Positions 50 to 32,835 of a DNA stretch of 44,729 bases are shown here, one piece after another. Within the stretch, counting starts at the first letter, position 1. Each line of letters starts with the position of its first letter. The DNA comes from a virus: the UHGV virus genome UHGV-0045723; one strand, given 5' to 3'. The position numbers were made by a program, and so were the translations under genes. The notes under the pieces were generated by a model. The model was given only the letters and a program-made list of their open reading frames with translations, was not told the DNA's origin and searched no databases.

Positions 50-3000
50 ATGACATATCAGGCAATTTTCACTGGCTGGGATGATCTGACGATTGAAGAC
101 CTTCTGGTCGCTTACCGGAAAGCAAAAGCCGATAGCTTCTTTGAGAATACATTTCCTGTTGCTATCAAATTTGCCGAGTATGAGCAGGAATTACTTGAAA
201 ACCTGCAAAAACTCTTAGATCTTTTGCAGAGCGAAGATGGATTCAGTAGCAATAAGAAGTTGATTGGCAAATTTCGTTTGTTACCGAAAAAATTAACCAC
301 AAAGAAAAAACATGAATCCCAAAATGGACACGTCCACTTTTCTAATCCTAAACGAGCAGCCGACCATTTATTTAATAATTTTGATCTGATACCAGAGTTT
401 CGTATTATTGGTGACTTCCCGGTTGATAGTCACATTATCTCTGCACTATGGATTAACATGGTCGGGCATAAATTTGATGCCAGCTTAGATAACTGTTGCT
501 ATGGCGCGCGGCTAAAGCGTATTCGTAATGATGAATTATTTAGCAATGAGCAGGATAATCCATTCCATATCAGTGCCGTGGGTTCTTTTAGCCCCTACTT
601 CCAGCCCTACCAAAAATGGCGTGGTGATGGCTTAAAAGCTATACGTGACGAGTTGGAAAAAGATCGTGACATTATCGCCGCCTCACTGGATTTAAAAAGT
701 TACTATCATTTTATTGATCCACTGGCTATAACCTCTGATGATCTCTATAACACACTAAACATAAAACTGACTGAGGATGAAAAAGCGTTTACTGCACAGT
801 TAGCAGTATTCTTAAAGCACTGGTCTGACGGCGCAGCGGCATTTGGAAAGAAAATAGCGTACAAAACACCTGTTATTAATGGTGGTCTGGTCATTGGATT
901 AACAGCCAGTCGGATCATTTCAAATATATTGCTACACCATTGGGATAAATTAGTCATTGAAAAACTATCACCAATTCACTACGGTCGTTATGTCGATGAT
1001 ATGTTCCTTGTAATACGCGATACAGGGACAATTACTAATAATCACGAATTTATGTTATTGCTGCAAGATAGGCTTGGCAATGATTGCGTTTATTTGAAAA
1101 ACGAGCAAAAACAAATATGGCAAATACAGCAGGGCGAGCATTTCCAGGGTAAGACCACCATCCAGTTACAATCCGATAAGCAAAAACTTTTCGTGCTTCA
1201 AGGGAGGGCTGGAATAGACCTGCTCGACAGTATCGAAAAGGAGATCTACGAGCTTTCTAGTGAACACCGCTTGATGCCTTCACCGGATCAACTGGAACAC
1301 TCCACCGCAGCTAAAGTCCTTTCCGCTGCCGGTAGTGTAGGTGAAAATGCCGATACTCTGCGCCGTGCGGATGGATTAACCATTCGTCGTTTGGGCTGGT
1401 CACTGCAATTACGCTACGTTGAAACACTGGCACGAGATCTGCCTCCAAGTGAATGGAAAGAACAGCGGGAAGAGTTTTATCAGTTTGCCTACAACCATAT
1501 TCTTAGGGCTGATAATCTATTTGCACATTTTAGTTATCTGCCAAGGCTGCTTGGCTTTGCTATCAGTATGAATGAATGGCAGCACGCGGAAAAAATTGTA
1601 CTTAAAGCTTACGAATCCATCAACCTGTTGGCATCGGTGATTACTTCAGGTAAGGAAGTGAATATAAATGGTTGCAAAACTCGAGCAGTAAATGATCTTT
1701 GGCGCTGTATAAAAGGCACATTAAGCTGGCTATTTGTTGATGCAGCGACACGATATTACAGTCCTGACAGATTATTTCTTGATAAACGTTCAAAGAAAGA
1801 AGAGTGCCTTGCGGATACATTTTTTAATCATATTTCACAAAGTCTGACGAATCTAAAGGATTTACTGGATCTTCGCTTTGATTCAGCAGATTTTTATTTA
1901 AAAGCGCCATTGGTAGCTCGAGCTGATTTAGCAAAGGAACCTTATAAACAGATCGTAAAGAGTCAGTCGGCAGAAAAACTTGTTAATCAGCGTGATAGTA
2001 AAAAAGAAGTTAAAATACTGAAATTAATGAGCGACTCATCGCTTATTGATATTGACGTTATTAAGCTATTTTTGAAATCAACCAAGAATACCCGACTGGA
2101 AAAAGTGGCTAAAGGAAATCGTAAAAACGAAAGTTACCTACCTTACATTTTCCCTACACGTCCTTTAACACCCGCTGAAATATCAGAACTGGCCCCCGAA
2201 TGTGTTGGATTACCCTCCACATCCGACAAAAAACCAGATGAGAGACCGTCCACCATTTGGGCAAAATATACTCAAGCATTACGCGGAGTATGGATCAAAC
2301 CGACGTTGCTAGCATCGGAGCAGGACTCAGATGAAGCGACAAAAAAAGCTCGGCCTAAGAAATTCATTCATATTGGCACAGACAGGAAACATAAAGTTGT
2401 CGTTGCGCTAACCAGCATTAAAACAGAGGAGGACGACTGGGCTAAAATGGCCTGCAATAAATCTAACTTGTCCCGTTCAAGGTACCAGCGGATTTCTGAA
2501 CTGGTTAATGCAACATTGAAACTATCTCCTAAACCTGATTATGTTTTATTCCCTGAGCTTTCAATCCCGTTACGCTGGGTTAACAGTATTGCTGATCGTT
2601 TGAGTTCGGCGGGTATCAGTCTAATTGCGGGAACAGAATACCGCCACTTAGACGATAATCAACTGAAGAGTGAGGCCGTACTTGTCCTTTCAGATAACAG
2701 ACTCGGCTATCCAGCGAGTGTCAAAATATGGCAACCCAAGCTGGAACCCGCCGTAGGTGAAGATGAGGCATTATTTTCAACTTATGGTAAGTCTTGGGAT
2801 TCGACACTTAATGTTAAACAACGTAAGCCGGTATATATTCATCACGGCGTCAATTTTGGCGTTATGATTTGCTCTGAACTCCAGAATAGTAAAGCGAGGA
2901 TCCGTTTTCAGGGCGCACTCGATGCATTAATGGTATTGAGCTGGAATAAAGATCTAGATACGTTTGCATCGTTGATTGAATCAGCAGCGCTGGATATTCA

Positions 3001-3259
3001 TGCCTATACTATTTTAGTGAATAACCGAAAATACGGCGATAGTCGCGTACGTTCCCCGGCAAAAGAACCCTTTATGCGTGATATTGCTCGTGTGAAGGGC
3101 GGTGATAATGACTTTGTGGTCGCTGCAACGCTGGATATCGACTCGTTAAGGGCATTTCAGAGCAGGGCAAAACGCTGGCCTAAAGGCGGCGATAAATTCA
3201 AACCGTTACCTGAAGGATTCCAGTTGGCAAAGAACCGCAAAAAGCTACCGCCAAAATAA
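50..3259 (+). CDS. Defence-type (UG/Abi) reverse transcriptase fused to C-terminal nitrilase domain; DRT type 1 (UG1)-like
   Basis: 1069-aa ORF; RT motif C YVDDMF (HYGRYVDDMFLVIRD) in N-terminal half; C-terminal half has nitrilase-superfamily Glu/Lys/Cys context (VLFPELS, KIWQPK, VMICSELQ). Confidence 0.85.
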   Translation: MTYQAIFTGWDDLTIEDLLVAYRKAKADSFFENTFPVAIKFAEYEQELLENLQKLLDLLQSEDGFSSNKKLIGKFRLLPKKLTTKKKHESQNGHVHFSNPKRAADHLFNNFDLIPEFRIIGDFPVDSHIISALWINMVGHKFDASLDNCCYGARLKRIRNDELFSNEQDNPFHISAVGSFSPYFQPYQKWRGDGLKAIRDELEKDRDIIAASLDLKSYYHFIDPLAITSDDLYNTLNIKLTEDEKAFTAQLAVFLKHWSDGAAAFGKKIAYKTPVINGGLVIGLTASRIISNILLHHWDKLVIEKLSPIHYGRYVDDMFLVIRDTGTITNNHEFMLLLQDRLGNDCVYLKNEQKQIWQIQQGEHFQGKTTIQLQSDKQKLFVLQGRAGIDLLDSIEKEIYELSSEHRLMPSPDQLEHSTAAKVLSAAGSVGENADTLRRADGLTIRRLGWSLQLRYVETLARDLPPSEWKEQREEFYQFAYNHILRADNLFAHFSYLPRLLGFAISMNEWQHAEKIVLKAYESINLLASVITSGKEVNINGCKTRAVNDLWRCIKGTLSWLFVDAATRYYSPDRLFLDKRSKKEECLADTFFNHISQSLTNLKDLLDLRFDSADFYLKAPLVARADLAKEPYKQIVKSQSAEKLVNQRDSKKEVKILKLMSDSSLIDIDVIKLFLKSTKNTRLEKVAKGNRKNESYLPYIFPTRPLTPAEISELAPECVGLPSTSDKKPDERPSTIWAKYTQALRGVWIKPTLLASEQDSDEATKKARPKKFIHIGTDRKHKVVVALTSIKTEEDDWAKMACNKSNLSRSRYQRISELVNATLKLSPKPDYVLFPELSIPLRWVNSIADRLSSAGISLIAGTEYRHLDDNQLKSEAVLVLSDNRLGYPASVKIWQPKLEPAVGEDEALFSTYGKSWDSTLNVKQRKPVYIHHGVNFGVMICSELQNSKARIRFQGALDALMVLSWNKDLDTFASLIESAALDIHAYTILVNNRKYGDSRVRSPAKEPFMRDIARVKGGDNDFVVAATLDIDSLRAFQSRAKRWPKGGDKFKPLPEGFQLAKNRKKLPPK

Positions 3260-3421
3260 GAAACTGATTTTCGCTATTAATAATCAGGGTATTTTTGCGT
3301 GAGATGTCGGTAAACATGATGTAGCCCTTGCCACTCATGACCAATCGCAGTATCTTTCTCCCGCGCCTGCAAAATCAGGCGTCGGGATTAGCCTCCTGAA
3401 GAAATCTTATCGGCGACACAT

Positions 3422-3442
3422 GACGCGCCAGCGTCTTTTTTT
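3422..3442 (+). terminator. Putative rho-independent terminator downstream of RT-nitrilase gene
   Basis: GACGC-gcca-GCGTC hairpin followed by a run of 7 T. Confidence 0.4.
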
Positions 3443-3605
3443 GTGTTGTTCGCACGGTTACATCTCAATGGTGGGCCGGGCGGGGGCGGCGCAAGACGCG
3501 CCAGTGTCCGATAAGGCTGGTAAGGCTAACCCTGCCCGGTTCCACCACCCGCGAGATTAGCCTCTCCGGTGGTGGCTTGAACACCCACTTATCGGAGGTT
3601 GCCCT

Positions 3606-6446: not shown

Positions 6447-7316
<870 letters not shown>

Positions 7317-12780: not shown

Positions 12781-13859
12781 CAGAACGGTTCCTCCTGTAC
12801 TCTGGCTTTTTTCTTTTTCCGCGCGCCGGGGGCTTCGGGTTCAGGCAGATAAGCATCAGGTGGGCCGACACGGATTTCCGTCAGGGTGCCGTTCTGGTCC
12901 TGAGTAAACGTGACTTCCGAGACAAGCAGTTCGGTATTGTCGAAACCACAGACCGGATCGAAGACAATCACCCGCTGGTTGGGCTGCCACAGCGTACCGT
13001 TATCCTGTCGCCAGCCCTGAACCACATAGGTGGTTTCATCCGTCCGCGCCGCCCGTTGTCGGGCTTCAAAGTCCGCACGGGCAATACAGCCTGCCCCCGT
13101 AGCCTGCCCTGTCTGCCTGATATACATCGGACGGTAACGGGCAATAAATGCGTCCTCTGTGCGGGCCCGCAGCGCGGTGGTGGTGGCCTCACCGAAATCA
13201 TCGTCGTTTCCGGCACGCTGCCCCGCCACCTGGTAAACAGAAAACCGCTCCCGGATACTCTTCTCCGTATCGCAGGAAAGGATGTTTTCCCCGAGTACCA
13301 GCGCAGTATGTGCCCGCGTTGAGCCAATACCGCCAATCACCAGCCTGCCGTGCGGGTCGTCGTAAGCCAGTGCCTGCTGCTGACCGAGTATTTTGTTGAT
13401 TACCTCAATCACCGTTTCACCGTGATCAGGCTGGACATCAGGAATAACACCCGACGGCGCACCGTTGTTCACCACCTCAATGCCGAAAGGCGCAGCAAGC
13501 ACCTGCGCAATCTGTACCAGCGATCGTCCGTTAAACTGTGTCGGTTCGGCTGCACAGTCAATCAGGTCAGCGGTCAGACTGCGTCCGGCAATACCGGTGC
13601 TGACCGAACGGGCATCGTAACGAACGGGCGTCGCCTCCACCCAGCCGGTGATCACCAGCTCATCACCAATCAGCACCTCCACTTTTGAACCGTTTTTAAT
13701 GCGCGGCTGAAGCGTGGTAATACCCTCATCTCCCGGCCACTGGCGGGTGATCTCCACACTGAAATCCCGCGCCAGCCGTTCAATACCGGCACCGATGCGC
13801 ACCGATGTCCAGCCATTCCACTCCCGGCCATTTACCCGTAGCGTGACATTGTCGTTCAT
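12780..13859 (-). CDS. Tail/baseplate hub protein (Mu P / gp44-like)
   Basis: 359-aa ORF between gpV-like and DNA circulation genes. Confidence 0.7.
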   Translation of the reverse strand: MNDNVTLRVNGREWNGWTSVRIGAGIERLARDFSVEITRQWPGDEGITTLQPRIKNGSKVEVLIGDELVITGWVEATPVRYDARSVSTGIAGRSLTADLIDCAAEPTQFNGRSLVQIAQVLAAPFGIEVVNNGAPSGVIPDVQPDHGETVIEVINKILGQQQALAYDDPHGRLVIGGIGSTRAHTALVLGENILSCDTEKSIRERFSVYQVAGQRAGNDDDFGEATTTALRARTEDAFIARYRPMYIRQTGQATGAGCIARADFEARQRAARTDETTYVVQGWRQDNGTLWQPNQRVIVFDPVCGFDNTELLVSEVTFTQDQNGTLTEIRVGPPDAYLPEPEAPGARKKKKARVQEEPF

Positions 13860-15190
13860 TGCACTGGCACCTTCAGAGGGATCACCGGCACAAAGCCGGG
13901 ATGCGTAATGGCATTACGCCGGATAATGTCCGCGTCACGCGCCGCGTTATCAAACCAGGTCGCCGCCAGCACCAGCGCGGGTAAAACCTCATCCGGTGTG
14001 CGCTGAATGATCCGTGCAGACTGTTCAAGGCGCGTGTTGATATCCGCATTCAGATCTGCTTTCACCCGGCGCAGCGCCAGAAACAGCGCATCACTGGTTG
14101 TACGGGACAATTCCTTATCAATTGCCGTATTCAGTGTGTCGCGAATGTCAGTCAGTTCTTCCCACGTCGGCAGGTCAACCGTGTTTTTCACCGCCGGTGC
14201 ATTGTTCAGTGCCGGATGCGTGACGGAAGGCCAGCCAGTGCTCTGCGCAGGTGTTGTTGCCTGCCCCACTGCGGAATTCTGCATCACCGCGGAAGTTGTT
14301 GGCGCAGGCAATCGGGTGACGGCATACGCCGCTTCGCTGATTGCGGTCGTACGAAGGGTGCTGGCAACCACGTTACGCTGCTGCGTCGCCGTGGCGGTGG
14401 TTTTACTGTCCGTTTTCCAGACGCCGCGCGGTTGCAGATCGCTGCCGAGGCTGACACCGGAAAGCGTTTTGATCATGGTGACCAGGTCGCTGGCGTTACC
14501 ATAAAGGCGTTTCCCGGTACGCCACATTTTCTGCACCTGCTCAACGAAATTTTTGCCTGACGATGGCGGCGGCAGAAGTACCGAGATATCCCCCTGCAAC
14601 AGCCTGGCGGCATCCGATACGGCAGAATCCACCACTTTCATCGCATCAGAAACATACCCCAGCATTATGCTGGCATTACCGATAACATCGTTCTGCACGA
14701 AATCCGCCACACCATCGATACTGAAACCGCTGAAGCTGTCACTGATGCAGTCATCCAGTGCAGAACAGGATGACATCAGCGTCTGCGCCGTCGCCGCACC
14801 TGATGTGGGGTAAGAGAGTTCTCCTGCTTCGACAAACTTCAGGTCAAAGCGGACAATACGCCCTTCATTTTTCGATGTGCTGACCCGAACTTCCCCGTCA
14901 ACACAGACTTTCAGCTCACCATATGTCGGGTGGACCAGCGTGCCGGGACCGGGTTTATTCAGCGCGTCAATCAGGCGATCGCGCTGGTCAAAGCAGTCAT
15001 CTCCCACCACATAAGCTGTGATGGACGGGCGGAAAGTGACTTTTCCCAGATCTTCGGTATAGGGCTTGTCGCGGTTCGGGTATTCATGTGTTTCCACACG
15101 GCGACCGGTTCCCGCACTTTCTTCTTCAACCTTAAACGGCACACCTCGAAATGACGCATCCTGAAGCCTGTCTTTCCACGTCATATACAC
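13856..15190 (-). CDS. DNA circulation protein (Mu N / gp43-like)
   Basis: 444-aa ORF, N-terminus MYMTWKDRLQDASFRGVPFKVEE; follows tape measure in Mu-like order. Confidence 0.8.
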   Translation of the reverse strand: MYMTWKDRLQDASFRGVPFKVEEESAGTGRRVETHEYPNRDKPYTEDLGKVTFRPSITAYVVGDDCFDQRDRLIDALNKPGPGTLVHPTYGELKVCVDGEVRVSTSKNEGRIVRFDLKFVEAGELSYPTSGAATAQTLMSSCSALDDCISDSFSGFSIDGVADFVQNDVIGNASIMLGYVSDAMKVVDSAVSDAARLLQGDISVLLPPPSSGKNFVEQVQKMWRTGKRLYGNASDLVTMIKTLSGVSLGSDLQPRGVWKTDSKTTATATQQRNVVASTLRTTAISEAAYAVTRLPAPTTSAVMQNSAVGQATTPAQSTGWPSVTHPALNNAPAVKNTVDLPTWEELTDIRDTLNTAIDKELSRTTSDALFLALRRVKADLNADINTRLEQSARIIQRTPDEVLPALVLAATWFDNAARDADIIRRNAITHPGFVPVIPLKVPVQ

Positions 15191-15194
15191 TCCG

Positions 15195-15226
15195 AAAATA
15201 AAAAAGCCACCTATTAGAAGGTGGCC
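15195..15226 (-). terminator. Rho-independent terminator after tail moron
   Basis: Minus-strand GGCCACC-ttctaata-GGTGGC hairpin followed by TTTTTTATTTT. Confidence 0.6.
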
Positions 15227-15245
15227 TTGTAATGAATTTTATTAA

Positions 15246-15776
15246 TTAGCGAGTCAGAAACAACGAATCTTTATACTTTTGCTGTTGTTCATTTAAATAC
15301 TTAGCTGTTTCATCGCTGGCAAATGGAAATATTACCGTATTTTTAGGCATGGTAATTTCTTTTTTGTCCAGCGTCAGAGTAAACATAGGAACATACTGAG
15401 CAGAGTAACGCACCGCAGAAACGAGCTCTAGTTTAGACTCTTCAATAACACTTAAATTATCCAGGCTAACTTTCTCTTCATCTTTTTTCTTTGACGCATT
15501 TAAAGTTTTTATTACTTTATTTAATTTCTCCTGAAAATCCTCCTTAAAGTTTTCAGGATTGCCGTCGACAACAAGAATCTGTTCACCCTGATTATCTGGA
15601 AAAATAATCTTTGCACTTATCAATTTATTTTCTTTATAAACATCACCAAGTTTTATGGCTCCTCCAGATAACTGAATAATATGTTCATCTTTAAAGGAGA
15701 TGTTGCCAGAGATTATGAGAGATGAAAAAATAGCCGCTACTCCAAGAATTACACTTGCTGTGATATAGCCTTTCAT
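15246..15776 (-). CDS. Moron: membrane-anchored or secreted protein of unknown function
   Basis: 176-aa ORF in AT-rich DNA between tape-measure and DNA-circulation genes; N-terminal hydrophobic segment ITASVILGVAAIFSSLIISG; own terminator. Confidence 0.6.
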   Translation of the reverse strand: MKGYITASVILGVAAIFSSLIISGNISFKDEHIIQLSGGAIKLGDVYKENKLISAKIIFPDNQGEQILVVDGNPENFKEDFQEKLNKVIKTLNASKKKDEEKVSLDNLSVIEESKLELVSAVRYSAQYVPMFTLTLDKKEITMPKNTVIFPFASDETAKYLNEQQQKYKDSLFLTR

Positions 15777-15867
15777 TTTTCGCCTATTAACATTTTTCTA
15801 AATGTGCATTAATTCTATCACTCTATTTATGACTTACAACCAGCAATACATGTGAGGGGAATCCTGG

Positions 15868-17700
15868 CTACCAAAATCGGGTATAGCCAACATCGTGATT
15901 TATATCAATGCCACTGGAGCGTGTTTCCGTAACCCGCATACCTGGTGGCATATTTATAAATGATACCTTGATCTCACCATCAACTTTTGGCGCGGTAGCT
16001 TTATTAATCATGAAGGGATTCGAGCCTGTGGCATCGGAGGCGTTGTTTGCCTGAGCCGGATCCACCGCCGGATAAGGAGTGTATCCCCGTGCCGGTATTC
16101 CCGTCCCATAAGCATCATAAGCACCCGCGCCCCACTGCGCAGAGTTAATGGCATCGACCGTGTCACCGGAACTGTCGGTAAACCACTCAATAATTGGCTT
16201 CAGCTTGTCCCACATATCCTGAAACCACTTAACAACCGGTCCCCAGTTATTGATTACCATCCCCAGCGGCGACCAGGCAAAAACCTTCTTCAGAAGTTCC
16301 CAGCCAGCCTCAAAATAAGGACCAATGGTTTCCCAGAGCTTCTTGAAATAAGGTCCGACAACATCCCAATTAGTGATAATTAATCCCGCAGCCAGGGCTA
16401 TCGCCGTCGCAATCATTCCAATCGGCGTCATCGACATGATCCTGCTGACAATACTGATGGCACCGCCAACGCCCATCAATCCCAGTTTCAGAATCGCAAG
16501 ACCGGCAGCAAGCCCGACGACGCCGCGAATAACCCGGGGATTTTCATCCGCAAACTTCGTGAATTTCTCCCCCAACTCCCCCAGCCATTGCGTGATATTT
16601 TTGGCGTCACCAGAAAATGCGCCGCCAATAGCCGCAAGGCCGTTAGTTGCGGTCCCTGTCATTGCCTCCCACAGGTTGGACAGCGTACCAAGCTGTGCCT
16701 GAACACGTTTATTCAGGCTGGCCTGTTTATTCATCTTCTGCTGGATCTGATCGTAGCCATCCTTTCCTTTATCGATTAGTGCATTGACCACCTGAAGGGT
16801 TTCGGCATCATCACCAAATATTGCCTTAAGTACACCGGTTCGCTTAACGTCGGTCAGTTTTCGCAGCTTTGCCAGTTGCCTGAACATGTTATCAAGACCG
16901 CCAAAACTCCCTTTGCCATCAGTAAAATCGAGCTGTACCCCGAGTTTCTGGCGGGCCATGACTTTATTGACGTCCCTGATTTTCTTAACGCTTAATCCGG
17001 ACTGGATAACTTTTCGCAGGGCATTACCTGCCGACTCCCCGTTCATCCCCATCTGATCCATCATGACGCTGATGGGGGCAAGGCTCTGTGCAGCCTGAAG
17101 ACCGTCCTTGTTCACCATCTTCAGAACAGAACTGGTTTTAGTGAAGAAGGACAACATGTTGGTATCGTCAACGCCCAGATAAAACGCCTTCTGGATAGTG
17201 TCGAACAGCCCCATCATGTCTTCTGACGCCGTTCCGGTAGCATCCTGCATCTTTGCAGCAAACTCAGCAGCCGCTTCCGGTGTTTTTTTCAGTTGTACCG
17301 CAAGATAAGCTGTCGCTTTACCCACACCACCCAGAATGTTTTCTGCCGGGATCCCCTGACGCACCAGCATCTGCATCATGTTCTGGAAATCAGCCGTTGT
17401 ACCGGGTAGCTGGTTACCCAGGCCAATAGCCAGTTTATTGATGTCCTGAAAGCTCTTTCCAACCTCGCCGTTCGCATCCATCATGGCGACTTTCAGCCCG
17501 GTGGCGGCGTTTTCCTGATCGGCATAAGATTTCAGGGAAAGCGTCAGACCCGCTGCCAGTCCGCCACCAAGCGCCAGCCCACCCTGTGACGCTTCTTCCG
17601 CCTGGCGTTTAAATCCCCGGATTTTCTTTTGCATTTTCGACAGCGCGGGAGAAAGCCTGTCGACACCGGTGATCAACGCCTTAAGCTCAAATTCCGCCAT
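15868..17700 (-). CDS. Tail tape measure protein
   Basis: 610-aa ORF, Gly/Ala-rich with hydrophobic central segments; position after chaperone. Confidence 0.85.
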   Translation of the reverse strand: MAEFELKALITGVDRLSPALSKMQKKIRGFKRQAEEASQGGLALGGGLAAGLTLSLKSYADQENAATGLKVAMMDANGEVGKSFQDINKLAIGLGNQLPGTTADFQNMMQMLVRQGIPAENILGGVGKATAYLAVQLKKTPEAAAEFAAKMQDATGTASEDMMGLFDTIQKAFYLGVDDTNMLSFFTKTSSVLKMVNKDGLQAAQSLAPISVMMDQMGMNGESAGNALRKVIQSGLSVKKIRDVNKVMARQKLGVQLDFTDGKGSFGGLDNMFRQLAKLRKLTDVKRTGVLKAIFGDDAETLQVVNALIDKGKDGYDQIQQKMNKQASLNKRVQAQLGTLSNLWEAMTGTATNGLAAIGGAFSGDAKNITQWLGELGEKFTKFADENPRVIRGVVGLAAGLAILKLGLMGVGGAISIVSRIMSMTPIGMIATAIALAAGLIITNWDVVGPYFKKLWETIGPYFEAGWELLKKVFAWSPLGMVINNWGPVVKWFQDMWDKLKPIIEWFTDSSGDTVDAINSAQWGAGAYDAYGTGIPARGYTPYPAVDPAQANNASDATGSNPFMINKATAPKVDGEIKVSFINMPPGMRVTETRSSGIDINHDVGYTRFW

Positions 17701-30442: not shown

Positions 30443-31618
30443 ATGGATATAACTTGTTTAGAATGTGGCAATGTTCTTGACGACCCAACTGTAGCTTGCG
30501 ATAAATGCGGTGCCACGCCTCATGTTGTAGTGCTGGGCAAACAATCGTACTTTCCTATTGGTGCTGTAACAGCAAATCTTGAAAAAAATGATTCAAGAGC
30601 ATTTGATTATCGATTAGGTGAAGTTTGGGATCTAAAAAATGAAGTCACATCTGAATTCATAACCAGAATTGAGAAAAAATTTAGCCGAAAAAACAAATTT
30701 CATAACTTCCTAGACTCAGATCACAACCCTTCATCCATTCCTACGATCCTAAAAAAATACATTAATAAAAATAATGAATTCATTGATTTATCTAGAGCTA
30801 TAATAGAGAAGCTTAAACATAATGCTAATAACGAATCGAGAGTTGCCCAACTTCAGGGGGGGAGCGTTGTTTTCATCCACTATAAGTCTACCGAACCAGA
30901 GGATTTGGGGAAACTTCTAATCGTAATGGTTGATAAACAAAGCGCCTATGACTTTGATTCGGATAAGTTGACCCCAACAAGATTAAATCCAATTAATACC
31001 GATGCCTTACGGCAGGCTGCGATGTTCGATTTAACTTTATTCGAAGCCAGTTATCCAGAAAACAAGGGTGACTCATATGTACATTTCTTGCAAGGTAAAT
31101 CTAAAAGCGATTTTTTCAAAGACTCATTAGGTTGCCGACATGATTCGGACAATAAAAGAAGCATTCAGCAATTATTCAGTGCTATAGATATTTTTGCTAG
31201 TAAAAACTCACTCGGTCGTGTACTGCGTGATACTATTGACAATGAAGTTAAATCCTTACTGGAAAAAAAATCAAAAGATAAACACGGAAATAAGTCCGTT
31301 AAGATAGAGGATATTTCAAAAATAATTGACTCATGCCTGACTGATTCACACAAATGTAAGGGAACGTTTGTCGATTTTGTTAATCTTAATGGTTTCCAGA
31401 TTGACCCTCAATTTGAACCAACTCCTAAAGCAGCTGAAAGCGCGCTTACAATTGAAGTGGCAGATAACGACAATAATTTTAAGTTGAAAATAATGCGTGG
31501 AGCTATTGGAGACGAAAAGTCAAATAAGCCTGTAATTCTCACTGACAACAAATGCGAAATTGTGATAAAATTGAGTCAGGCAAATTATGATGAACTCAAA
31601 AGATATAGAGACAGCTAA
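30443..31618 (+). CDS. Zinc-ribbon protein with NdpA/YejK-like (NA37) nucleoid-associated domain; candidate defence gene A
   Basis: 391-aa ORF in AT-rich DNA; N-terminal CLECG-x12-CDKCG; central GGSVVFIHY, LLIVMVDK, YVHFLQGKSKSDFFKDSLG resemble E. coli YejK as I remember it. Confidence 0.7.
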   Translation: MDITCLECGNVLDDPTVACDKCGATPHVVVLGKQSYFPIGAVTANLEKNDSRAFDYRLGEVWDLKNEVTSEFITRIEKKFSRKNKFHNFLDSDHNPSSIPTILKKYINKNNEFIDLSRAIIEKLKHNANNESRVAQLQGGSVVFIHYKSTEPEDLGKLLIVMVDKQSAYDFDSDKLTPTRLNPINTDALRQAAMFDLTLFEASYPENKGDSYVHFLQGKSKSDFFKDSLGCRHDSDNKRSIQQLFSAIDIFASKNSLGRVLRDTIDNEVKSLLEKKSKDKHGNKSVKIEDISKIIDSCLTDSHKCKGTFVDFVNLNGFQIDPQFEPTPKAAESALTIEVADNDNNFKLKIMRGAIGDEKSNKPVILTDNKCEIVIKLSQANYDELKRYRDS

Positions 31619-31620
31619 TA

Positions 31621-32835
31621 ATGACAATTGCTGATGACTTATCAAGATTAGCGCAGATTATTAACGGAGCCTCAAGCAGAGTTGAGGGCTACTACACTGT
31701 CATAAGTCTTGAAGAAAGCATTGTTATTGTAAATAGTTCTGAAATAATTAGACTGTTACAATCTATAGGTTATAAAAAGGCAACAACCTGCATCGAAAAT
31801 AATGAAATTTGGCTAGATCGCCAAGCTTCATCTTGGGATGACGCTATAATTTATGAGAATGTTGAGTCTTTTTGGTCTAGAGTAAACACCCAAAACGCTC
31901 TTCCGAAAAATTATATCATCGGAACGCCGTTAATACTCCCTACTTCTAAGAATGAAAGCATCGAAAAAATCCATATTTTCTTTATGTGGAAAGATATCCT
32001 TTCATTAATTGCTGATCATCATAACAGTGACTGCTCTGTCTTATTTTTCACCAATGAAGACAAAAGTTATACAGTCGAACTCACGCATTTTTTACAATAT
32101 AGCGAGATTAATCGCTTATCGAACTCGTCTCTTAAATATGAAATTATAAAGGAGCTTCTCGACACAATAAAAATCAATGATTTACACAAAAGCGAGCGCA
32201 AGCTCGTTATACGCTCAGCCATAAACGAAGTATTTAAAGCAAATGGTACGTTCAATTTCTTTGACTTGCTTAACTCTACTGAACTCGTCAGGAAAAAATA
32301 TGATGAACTATATGAGATTTACACAAAGAGGTTTTCTGTAAATAAAATTCTTAACGAACTCGATGAGAAAAATCTTGAGTTCACGAGTAAAATTAACGAA
32401 TTCATATCATCTAATCAGACAAAAGCATTGACTATTCCCGGTGCATTAATAGCAGCTGGTGGCTTAGTGAAGGCTAATGAAACAACCGAAGCAATATTGA
32501 TTATCGCAGGACTTTGGATGATAAAAAAAGTCAATTACATTTCTATTGAGATATTCAATGAAACATTCGACAACTTACGTTCTCGAGTGGAGTCCGCTTT
32601 CGATAAGTATTTAAAGTTTGAAGAAAATAAAGAAATCAAAGATAATGCAGATAGTATTAAGAGTAGCATTACAGGTTTGATTGATAAAGCTAAAAAAAGG
32701 ATGAGAACTGTTAAATATCTCGCATCAGCCATGTTTTATGGAGGCCTTATTTACGTTGGATATAAACAGTTCCCAGTCTTTTTTGAAAAATCGGCAGTAA
32801 ATCTATTTTATTTTTTATGCCATACTATAAGCTAA
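31621..32835 (+). CDS. Membrane protein with helical N-terminal domain; candidate defence gene B
   Basis: 404-aa ORF starting 2 nt after gene A stop; hydrophobic helices ALTIPGALIAAGGLV...ILIIAGLWMI and YLASAMFYGGLIYVGY. Confidence 0.7.
   Translation: MTIADDLSRLAQIINGASSRVEGYYTVISLEESIVIVNSSEIIRLLQSIGYKKATTCIENNEIWLDRQASSWDDAIIYENVESFWSRVNTQNALPKNYIIGTPLILPTSKNESIEKIHIFFMWKDILSLIADHHNSDCSVLFFTNEDKSYTVELTHFLQYSEINRLSNSSLKYEIIKELLDTIKINDLHKSERKLVIRSAINEVFKANGTFNFFDLLNSTELVRKKYDELYEIYTKRFSVNKILNELDEKNLEFTSKINEFISSNQTKALTIPGALIAAGGLVKANETTEAILIIAGLWMIKKVNYISIEIFNETFDNLRSRVESAFDKYLKFEENKEIKDNADSIKSSITGLIDKAKKRMRTVKYLASAMFYGGLIYVGYKQFPVFFEKSAVNLFYFLCHTIS

Follow-up and report, generated by a model that had tools for sequence, protein, structure and literature searches.

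The 176-residue open reading frame (ORF) that lies between two tail genes of the virus genome UHGV-0045723 is very probably part of a moron: a self-contained, AT-rich cassette of foreign origin, lodged in a polymorphic cargo slot of an SfV-like E. coli prophage. Its product appears to be a membrane-anchored protein facing the periplasm, for which we tentatively favour a role in superinfection exclusion. All coordinates below are positions in the whole stretch of DNA that was analysed (44,729 nucleotides), which we refer to as the window.

Morons have been defined as extra genes that are absent from otherwise closely related phages (Juhala et al. 2000, as quoted in PMC3594210). The cassette described here is absent from close relatives, deviates in composition from its surroundings and carries its own terminator (identified in silico). 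The moron call of a first-pass annotation of this DNA is upheld on all three points, as well as by a promoter-like site, by the survival of the gene after prophage decay and by the presence of alternative cargos at the same position in other prophages.

The cassette and its place in the tail operon

The cassette and its two flanking genes comprise the following features:

15868..17700, minus strand: upstream flank, tail tape-measure protein (TMP) gene, 610 aa (PF10145 PhageMin_Tail, E=1e-26; tape-measure families phrog_28/17727)
15777..15867, minus strand: AT-rich spacer of 91 bp from the TMP stop to the moron ATG (direct sequence reading)
15812..15839, minus strand: sigma-70-type promoter-like site, TTGTAA, 16-nt spacer, extended -10 TGaTAGAAT (consensus scan, 9/12 matches plus TG)
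15246..15776, minus strand: moron ORF, 176 aa, ATG start, member of phrog_5485
15193..15228, minus strand: predicted intrinsic terminator of the cassette, stem-loop 15228..15203 and T-run 15202..15193 (folding)
13856..15190 (13856..15184 with the RefSeq start), minus strand: downstream flank, Mu gp43-like DNA-circulation/baseplate-hub gene (DNA_circ_N PF07157, E=3e-34; phrog_184 baseplate hub)

The moron ORF agrees in length and position with RefSeq WP_000679483.1 ('hypothetical protein'); for the DNA-circulation gene, RefSeq places the start at an ATG at 15184 instead of the GTG at 15190. The first-pass annotation had described an AT-rich ORF of 176 residues, wedged between tape-measure and DNA-circulation genes on the same strand, and both parts of that description hold, with PF10145 and PF07157 matches on either side and a GC content of 0.34 versus 0.52–0.56 in the flanks. 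The ORF itself has a GC of 0.341 and a GC3 of 0.30, compared to 0.516 and 0.56 for the TMP gene and 0.559 and 0.60 for the DNA-circulation gene, while the GC of the entire 677-bp block (15191..15867) is 0.34. The left junction of the cassette is the stop codon of the TMP gene, which is ∼97% identical to SfV orf14 except in its last few codons.

The tail module is of the Mu-type contractile kind (sheath, tube and homologues of gp43/44/45/46/47/48), and the region matches SfV-like phages, with an HK97-type head, a Mu-type contractile tail and lambdoid-type regulation that includes a Q antiterminator (a Q-family antiterminator is annotated in the matching record NZ_CP146678.1). The tail accordingly belongs to an SfV-like phage and not to a lambda-type siphovirus, and the comparison to lambdoid tail-region morons in the first-pass annotation is only loosely apt because the tail module is Mu-type. 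The matching record (L022) is 100% identical to our slot query of 1677 bp and carries the label 'plasmid unnamed3' of E. coli MS 69-1. It spans 64 kb and contains the prophage plus genes annotated as an MFS transporter, a LysR regulator and a ykgR fragment, and may be a misassigned chromosomal contig. Around pinE and the tail-fibre genes, its gene coordinates have no one-to-one correspondence to the window, a mismatch that would fit a difference in the invertible segment.

The spacer ahead of the moron gene, previously estimated at about 90 bp and measured here at 91 bp (15777..15867), is missing from SfV and SfII. It contains a weak AGG Shine-Dalgarno sequence, 6 nt before the ATG, and a promoter-like site at 15839..15812 that the first-pass annotation did not describe. 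Promoter-like matches in the region as a whole are not enriched over shuffles in the same consensus scan. The −35 TTG and −10 ...AAT of this site align at the same position upstream of orthologues that are 52–55% identical (L005, L007, L010 and L009).

The hairpin-plus-T-run terminator that had been noted at the cassette's far end was recovered in silico at 15228..15193. Its stem consists of 10 bp, including 5 G-C pairs, and is followed by TTTTATTTT; the predicted folding energy is −18.7 kcal/mol (z = −3.4 versus shuffles). The element adjoins the GGAG ribosome-binding site of the DNA-circulation gene. Cassettes carrying orthologues in Leclercia and Lelliottia have a predicted hairpin and T-run at the same place with a different stem sequence, as does an unrelated cassette in phage SKA5. 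A hairpin and T-run also lie between the tape-measure and DNA-circulation genes in the corresponding empty slots of SfV and SfII (L002, about 2199..2243; L003, 2192..2230), and the SfII record lists its copy as a putative terminator. All of the variants thus have a terminator-like element breaking up the late tail operon, with each cargo cassette supplying its own version.

Comparison of the moron ORF with orthologues from other genera yielded dN/dS values of 0.04–0.17 (0.078, at a dS of 1.07, for the best-determined pair), which establishes at the level of sequence evolution that the gene is under purifying selection. These values and the confidence of its AlphaFold model (pLDDT 91.9) indicate that the ORF is no chance reading frame; together with the 77 representatives of its family described below, they exclude a chance ORF in an AT-rich spacer.

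A variable slot between two conserved tail genes

In SfV, SfII, SfI and vB_EcoM-689R6, flanks that are 96.8–97.5% identical to those in the window enclose no insert; the slot in these phages consists of ∼45 bp with a small hairpin, extending from the TMP stop to the ribosome-binding site of gp43. The moron gene is also absent from SfIV. Since the four phages with an empty slot are isolated and deposited phages, the gene is not needed for the tail, and these genome comparisons show that the cassette is dispensable for that structure. The first-pass annotation had named relatives lacking the insert as the informative comparison, and homologues acting as conserved structural tail components as the finding that would speak against a moron. 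The outcome is an empty slot between ∼97% identical flanks in SfV, SfII and SfI, all of which lack the gene. The same position in phage SKA5 is occupied by a 164/170-aa signal-peptide protein with its own hairpin; we considered whether this might be a diverged allele and found it to be unrelated (BLASTP E=2.9).

A query spanning the slot matched through its flanks in 1093 of 5426 complete E. coli genomes, 171 of them with this insert. The insert alone was found in 179 of the 5426 genomes (∼3%) at ≥99% identity, in strains of diverse animal and human origin. Among the flank-matching E. coli genomes, 60 records sampled at even spacing had the following slot contents:

Empty: 28 records
This moron gene: 10 records
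OB-fold (tRNA_anti-like) protein with an N-terminal transmembrane helix, 148 aa, opposite strand: 4 records
bPH_1 protein, 125 aa: 3 records
Lipoprotein, 225 aa, lipobox LLGGC: 2 records
SKA5-type secreted signal-peptide protein, 164 aa: 2 records
Match to the DNA-circulation flank only: 11 records

The slot is thus polymorphic in E. coli, with at least four alternative genes able to fill it, and about half of the sampled prophages carry it empty. The five cargos are mutually unrelated. The four alternatives (from the E. coli prophages and phage SKA5 at L016, L017/L021, L018/L019, L020 and L001) have GC contents of 0.31–0.42; none matches a PADLOC family, and two are without a Pfam family. An export or anchor signal is present in four of the five cargo types and absent from the bPH_1 protein, so the slot is not reserved for envelope proteins.

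Orthologues of the moron gene occupy the same slot in prophages of Leclercia (52–58% identity) and Edwardsiella (41%; the range across genera is 40–58%), in cassettes with a GC of 0.35–0.375 versus 0.51–0.56 in their flanks. In a Lelliottia genome the gene is found alone, beside icd. That copy retains ∼190 bp of upstream homology to a Leclercia-type prophage, including the 3' end of the TMP gene, and ∼57 bp downstream; judged from these remnants, the locus is a decayed prophage of which only the moron is left. Across 66 E. coli prophage loci, divergence from the window is 0.43% for the insert versus 2.1% for the DNA-circulation gene and 1.76% for the TMP gene, and the insert is less diverged than its flanks in 65 of these loci (which are not independent). 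Such low divergence fits either recent recombinational spread across diverged backbones or tighter constraint. Between genera the cargo protein has evolved more rapidly than its neighbours, at 40–55% identity compared to 68% for gp43 and 81–82% for a gpP-like protein. Taken together, the genome alignments show that the cassette is exchanged as a unit. The retention of the gene in this slot, at 40–58% identity in three genera, could instead reflect a functional tie to the neighbouring tail genes, which would count against the exclusion role discussed below.

In Leclercia-type prophages (L005–L008 and L010; for example L005 10013..11808), the DNA-circulation gene is separated from the gpP-like baseplate gene by two extra genes, encoding proteins of 503–520 aa and 94 aa without a Pfam match. 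Neither gene is present in the window or in SfV, and the site may be another variable position of the tail module.

The protein family, its predicted fold and its topology

The moron protein matches phrog_5485 (PHROGs v4, 'function unknown') with E=6e-108, over residues 1–176 of the 176-position profile. A further, partial-length PHROG match was to phrog_34391, also of unknown function, and a match to the 'endonuclease' family phrog_15137 (E=0.014) was dismissed, as nothing else supported it. No Pfam family was found at E≤1, no NCBIfam match, none of the PADLOC-DB v2.0.0 families at E≤10, and nothing below E=0.3 in a profile search of PDB sequences.

An exhaustive profile search recovered 77 cluster representatives, nearly all of them 165–200 aa in length and sharing the hydrophobic segment at the N-terminus. 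Each of the 57 aligned relatives matches phrog_5485; a Pfam scan of these 57 gave scattered single matches near E=1e-3 only, which we treated as noise. A tblastn search of 50,697 deposited phage genomes yielded no close copy of the moron gene, viral contigs scanned with P0029 gave no match, and literature searches by RefSeq accession, PHROG id and slot returned no paper on the protein, the PHROG or the slot. The family ranges over SfV-like prophages, integrative elements and one virulent phage. Its distant members reside in small integrative elements of Pseudomonas-like genomes that encode a serine recombinase or integrase and a DUF5906 primase, with an Mrr-like restriction nuclease near the family member in one such element. 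In Pseudomonas-type elements (L011–L014; for example L011 7401..7943), a 180-aa signal-peptide protein is encoded 57 bp upstream of the family member on the same strand. It is no paralogue of the family (hhalign probability 0.6%) and may be a periplasmic partner in those lineages; the E. coli loci are without it.

Two regions can be distinguished in the protein:

15708..15764, minus strand: N-terminal transmembrane signal-anchor, residues 5–23, ITASVILGVAAIFSSLIIS (hydropathy; AlphaFold helix 2–23)
15249..15689, minus strand: predicted periplasmic alpha/beta domain, residues 30–176

The hydrophobic N-terminal anchor that the first-pass annotation had recognised corresponds to residues 5–23, with a mean Kyte-Doolittle value of 2.23. 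The AlphaFold model (pTM 0.76) consists of a single transmembrane helix and an alpha/beta domain in which two long helices are packed on a sheet. The domain is built from strands at residues 33–36, 39–42, 46–58 and 65–72, a helix at 74–93, strands at 114–126 and 132–143, and a helix at 149–171, and the most conserved motif, N-I-x4-G-x-V-x-L-G-x-V-Y-x-E, follows immediately after the anchor. Comparison of the model to PDB structures gave no convincing neighbour; as modelled, the fold of the family is confidently predicted and appears to have no solved counterpart.

We consider a periplasmic, membrane-anchored topology probable, on the basis of charge bias, N-terminally extended relatives and a lipoprotein homologue. 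The net charge on the N-terminal side of the hydrophobic segment is +1.9, the 15 residues after it average −0.6, and the bias runs in the positive-inside direction in 53 of the 57 family members. In three relatives (P0094, P0100 and P0088), 50–120 hydrophilic residues precede the hydrophobic segment, which must therefore be an internal anchor in those proteins. The moron protein has no lipobox, and a lipobox-like string is found in only 1 of the 57 members. The single significant BFVD match of the protein is the lipoprotein CNR37_00111 of the virulent Pseudomonas phage ventosus (Foldseek E=7e-7, TM 0.66 by target), which aligns to the family profile from just past its lipobox LLTGC (hhalign 86%, E=5e-6) and so has a lipobox in place of the transmembrane helix. 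The use of a transmembrane anchor in one lineage and a lipid anchor in another implies that the conserved domain is periplasmic and tethered to the membrane. Signal-peptide cleavage of the E. coli protein may occur after residue 24.

Possible functions of the moron protein

Small envelope-anchored exclusion proteins that act at the receptor or at DNA entry include P22 SieA, T4 Imm and Sp, T5 Llp, phi80/HK022 Cor and TP-J34 Ltp, and are attached through a transmembrane helix or a lipid. The moron family resembles this group in displaying both anchors (in E. coli a transmembrane helix, in phage ventosus a lipobox). The Bor, Lom and Cor proteins of lambda are likewise accessory envelope proteins that are encoded near the tail genes of temperate coliphages and expressed from the prophage. 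The first-pass annotation had likened the moron to lom, bor and cor; that likening is not borne out by homology or fold, as the moron protein has no Pfam match to those families and lacks both a lipobox and a barrel. Lom forms a beta-barrel in the outer membrane, and Bor and Cor are lipoproteins, whereas the moron protein is predicted to reside in the inner membrane.

The clearest parallel is HK97 gp15, a YebO-like superinfection-exclusion protein. Its moron lies next to the tape-measure gene, and the product inserts into the inner membrane and prevents the phage genome from entering (Cumby et al. 2012, as summarised in PMC3594210). Like the cassette studied here, which has a putative promoter, gp15 forms a promoter-ORF-terminator unit in the tail operon next to the TMP gene and is lacking from related phages, and like the moron protein (by prediction) it is a small, single-pass inner-membrane protein. 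A prophage-expressed block of genome entry without receptor masking has been demonstrated for gp15, according to the same source, and is what we tentatively propose for the moron protein. The two differ in that gp15 has 62 residues and almost no extramembrane domain, compared to 176 residues and a periplasmic domain of ∼150 residues here, and in that gp15 is encoded upstream of the TMP gene in a siphovirus, while the moron lies downstream of it in a Mu-type myovirus tail module. Homology to gp15, Bor, Lom or Cor was rejected: the moron protein has no match to these in Pfam (nor to YebO), and hhalign of gp15 to the family profile gave a probability of 0.1%. More generally, no homology or fold link to known exclusion or defence proteins was found.

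By analogy with gp15, a prophage-expressed superinfection-exclusion factor is a plausible, if somewhat uncertain, identity for the moron protein. In such a mechanism a sigma-70 promoter belonging to the cassette would drive synthesis of the protein in the lysogen, at a time when the late operon is silent. The uncleaved signal-anchor would insert into the inner membrane with the N-terminus in and the C-terminus out, displaying the ∼150-residue alpha/beta domain on the periplasmic face. The domain would then interfere with an incoming phage after adsorption, while its tail tip, tape-measure protein and DNA traverse the periplasm and inner membrane, a form of superinfection exclusion known from HK97 gp15, P22 SieA and T4 Imm. 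In the lytic cycle, late transcription antiterminated by Q would read through the terminator of the cassette (read-through by Q-modified polymerase is established lambdoid biology), so that expression of the tail genes would not be interrupted. The prophage's own progeny may also be kept from injecting in vain into sister lysogens, and a related possibility is a progeny-protecting self-exclusion (bioRxiv 10.1101/2024.03.05.583538). Periplasmic tethering, combined with occurrence on a prophage, an integrative element and a virulent phage, points to envelope-level interference with incoming phages, and competition between phages is a selective pressure that all three kinds of carrier could share.

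Weighed against exclusion, a lysogenic-conversion factor that benefits the host in ways unrelated to phages (stress tolerance, permeability, adhesion or serum resistance, as with lambda Bor and Lom) seems to us unlikely. A periplasm-facing anchored protein on a moron, with carriers from many animal and human sources, would suit such a role, and the fact that the cassette alone has been kept under purifying selection in the decayed Lelliottia prophage suggests a host benefit; the protein, however, matches neither Bor, Lom and Ail nor any other Pfam family and has no lipobox and no beta-barrel, and a virulence role in animal hosts fits poorly with relatives on integrative elements of environmental Pseudomonas-like genomes and in a virulent phage that infects a plant pathogen. 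The cassette might instead act in the lytic cycle through read-through of the late operon, by tuning lysis timing or release from the periplasm or by aiding penetration of the phage's own tail. The phage has a Q antiterminator and the cassette lies, on the same strand, inside its late tail operon, so that late transcription is expected whatever its own promoter does; its synteny with the TMP gene and gp43 is old (Escherichia, Leclercia and Edwardsiella), and the ventosus homologue belongs to a virulent phage. We nevertheless regard a lytic role as quite unlikely, given that SfV, SfII and SfI complete their cycle without the moron gene, that the gene persists as a stand-alone copy and on non-phage integrative elements, and that the position of the promoter-like site is conserved.

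Improbable, in our estimate, is a membrane effector of an abortive-infection type of defence, or a toxin that damages the envelope when triggered. Single-pass membrane proteins on mobile elements would be suited to this, and other defence genes are present in the window and an Mrr-like nuclease at distant loci, but only four residues are predicted to be cytoplasmic, which leaves no evident way to sense an intracellular infection. The protein has no PADLOC match, the E. coli loci have no conserved partner gene, and a soluble, folded domain in which two long helices pack against a sheet is unlike a pore former. The least credible of the alternatives, and a very improbable one, is that the ORF encodes a tail component with a structural or assembly role, or that it is a meaningless frame within an AT-rich spacer. 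The position between two same-strand tail genes is what speaks for a tail component; an N-terminal membrane anchor, occurrence outside phages and absence from functional close relatives speak against it, and the absence of the gene from SfV, SfII, SfI and SfIV, along with the unrelated gene in SKA5, refutes a structural role in SfV/Mu-type tails for practical purposes.

Two further systems bear comparison to the slot and its cargo. The old/tin and Z/fun hotspots of P2 hold alternative accessory genes (Rousset et al. 2022, as described in bioRxiv 10.1101/2024.10.15.618418). As in those hotspots, the cargo here sits at a fixed position between conserved phage genes and consists of an alternative, unrelated, AT-rich insert in each prophage; unlike them, the slot accommodates one small gene at a time and is bounded by the tape-measure and hub genes of SfV-like phages, with four of the five cargo types targeted to the envelope and none matching a known PADLOC defence system. 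Tab (from phage JBD26) and Tai are defences that prophages direct against tail assembly or the tape-measure protein (PMC10884400, PMC11364771). They share with the moron the form of single genes in or near temperate-phage late operons, and their target is the tail or tape-measure protein of a competitor. They act in the infected cell during tail assembly, and their carrier phages encode counter-defence genes (PMC10884400, PMC11364771), in contrast to the predicted periplasm-facing moron protein, which has no partner gene at its E. coli loci. PADLOC (2023 version, which may predate these systems) indicated no homology to Tab or Tai.

The protein is an uncharacterised example of a familiar kind, a tail-operon moron that encodes an envelope protein, to which the hotspot and the fold add value. 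A broader reading, which we consider doubtful, is that phrog_5485 represents an unrecognised family of membrane-tethered periplasmic exclusion factors whose fold is absent from solved structures, and that the slot is a dedicated exclusion hotspot with at least five swapped promoter-gene-terminator cassettes, four of them envelope-targeted and each perhaps blocking, at the cell envelope, a different step or set of phages. Among the main sources of phage resistance and host-fitness traits in E. coli are prophage morons, most of which are annotated as hypothetical. If the moron protein is an exclusion factor, it would represent a new family of proteins that act on contractile-tailed phage infection at its least understood step (the tail tip and DNA passing through the periplasm and inner membrane) and would bear on predictions of how susceptible clinical and veterinary E. 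coli are to phages; should it have no phage phenotype, it would be one more conserved hypothetical moron. The slot constitutes a natural panel of alternative cargos for comparison.

Outside the moron slot, the window contains several other accessory features:

50..3259, plus strand: RT_UG5-nitrilase (DRT) reverse-transcriptase defence protein, 1069 aa (PADLOC PDLC03780, E=0)
3363..3441 and 3464..3552, plus strand: isrK and C4 antisense RNA Rfam matches, downstream of the DRT gene
6492..7316, plus strand: PD-T4-3, a known anti-phage gene, AT-rich, with a LEM-3-like GIY-YIG domain (PADLOC PDLC04031, E=3e-140)
30443..32835, plus strand: second AT-rich block (GC ∼0.35), on the opposite strand to the moron, between the holin and the Q antiterminator

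The presence of PD-T4-3 and DRT at accessory positions is consistent with an anti-phage use of the moron. PD-T4-3 adjoins the pinE invertase at the tail-fibre end of the prophage, which is another accessory position. The second AT-rich block encodes an NA37-like nucleoid-associated protein (391 aa) and a 404-aa protein without a Pfam or PADLOC match, which makes it a candidate for an accessory or defence module of two genes. Known carriers of C4 antisense RNA include P1/P7 and P4, and the DRT gene with its neighbouring isrK/C4 region may be the remnant of a P4-like satellite that carries a DRT system next to the prophage.
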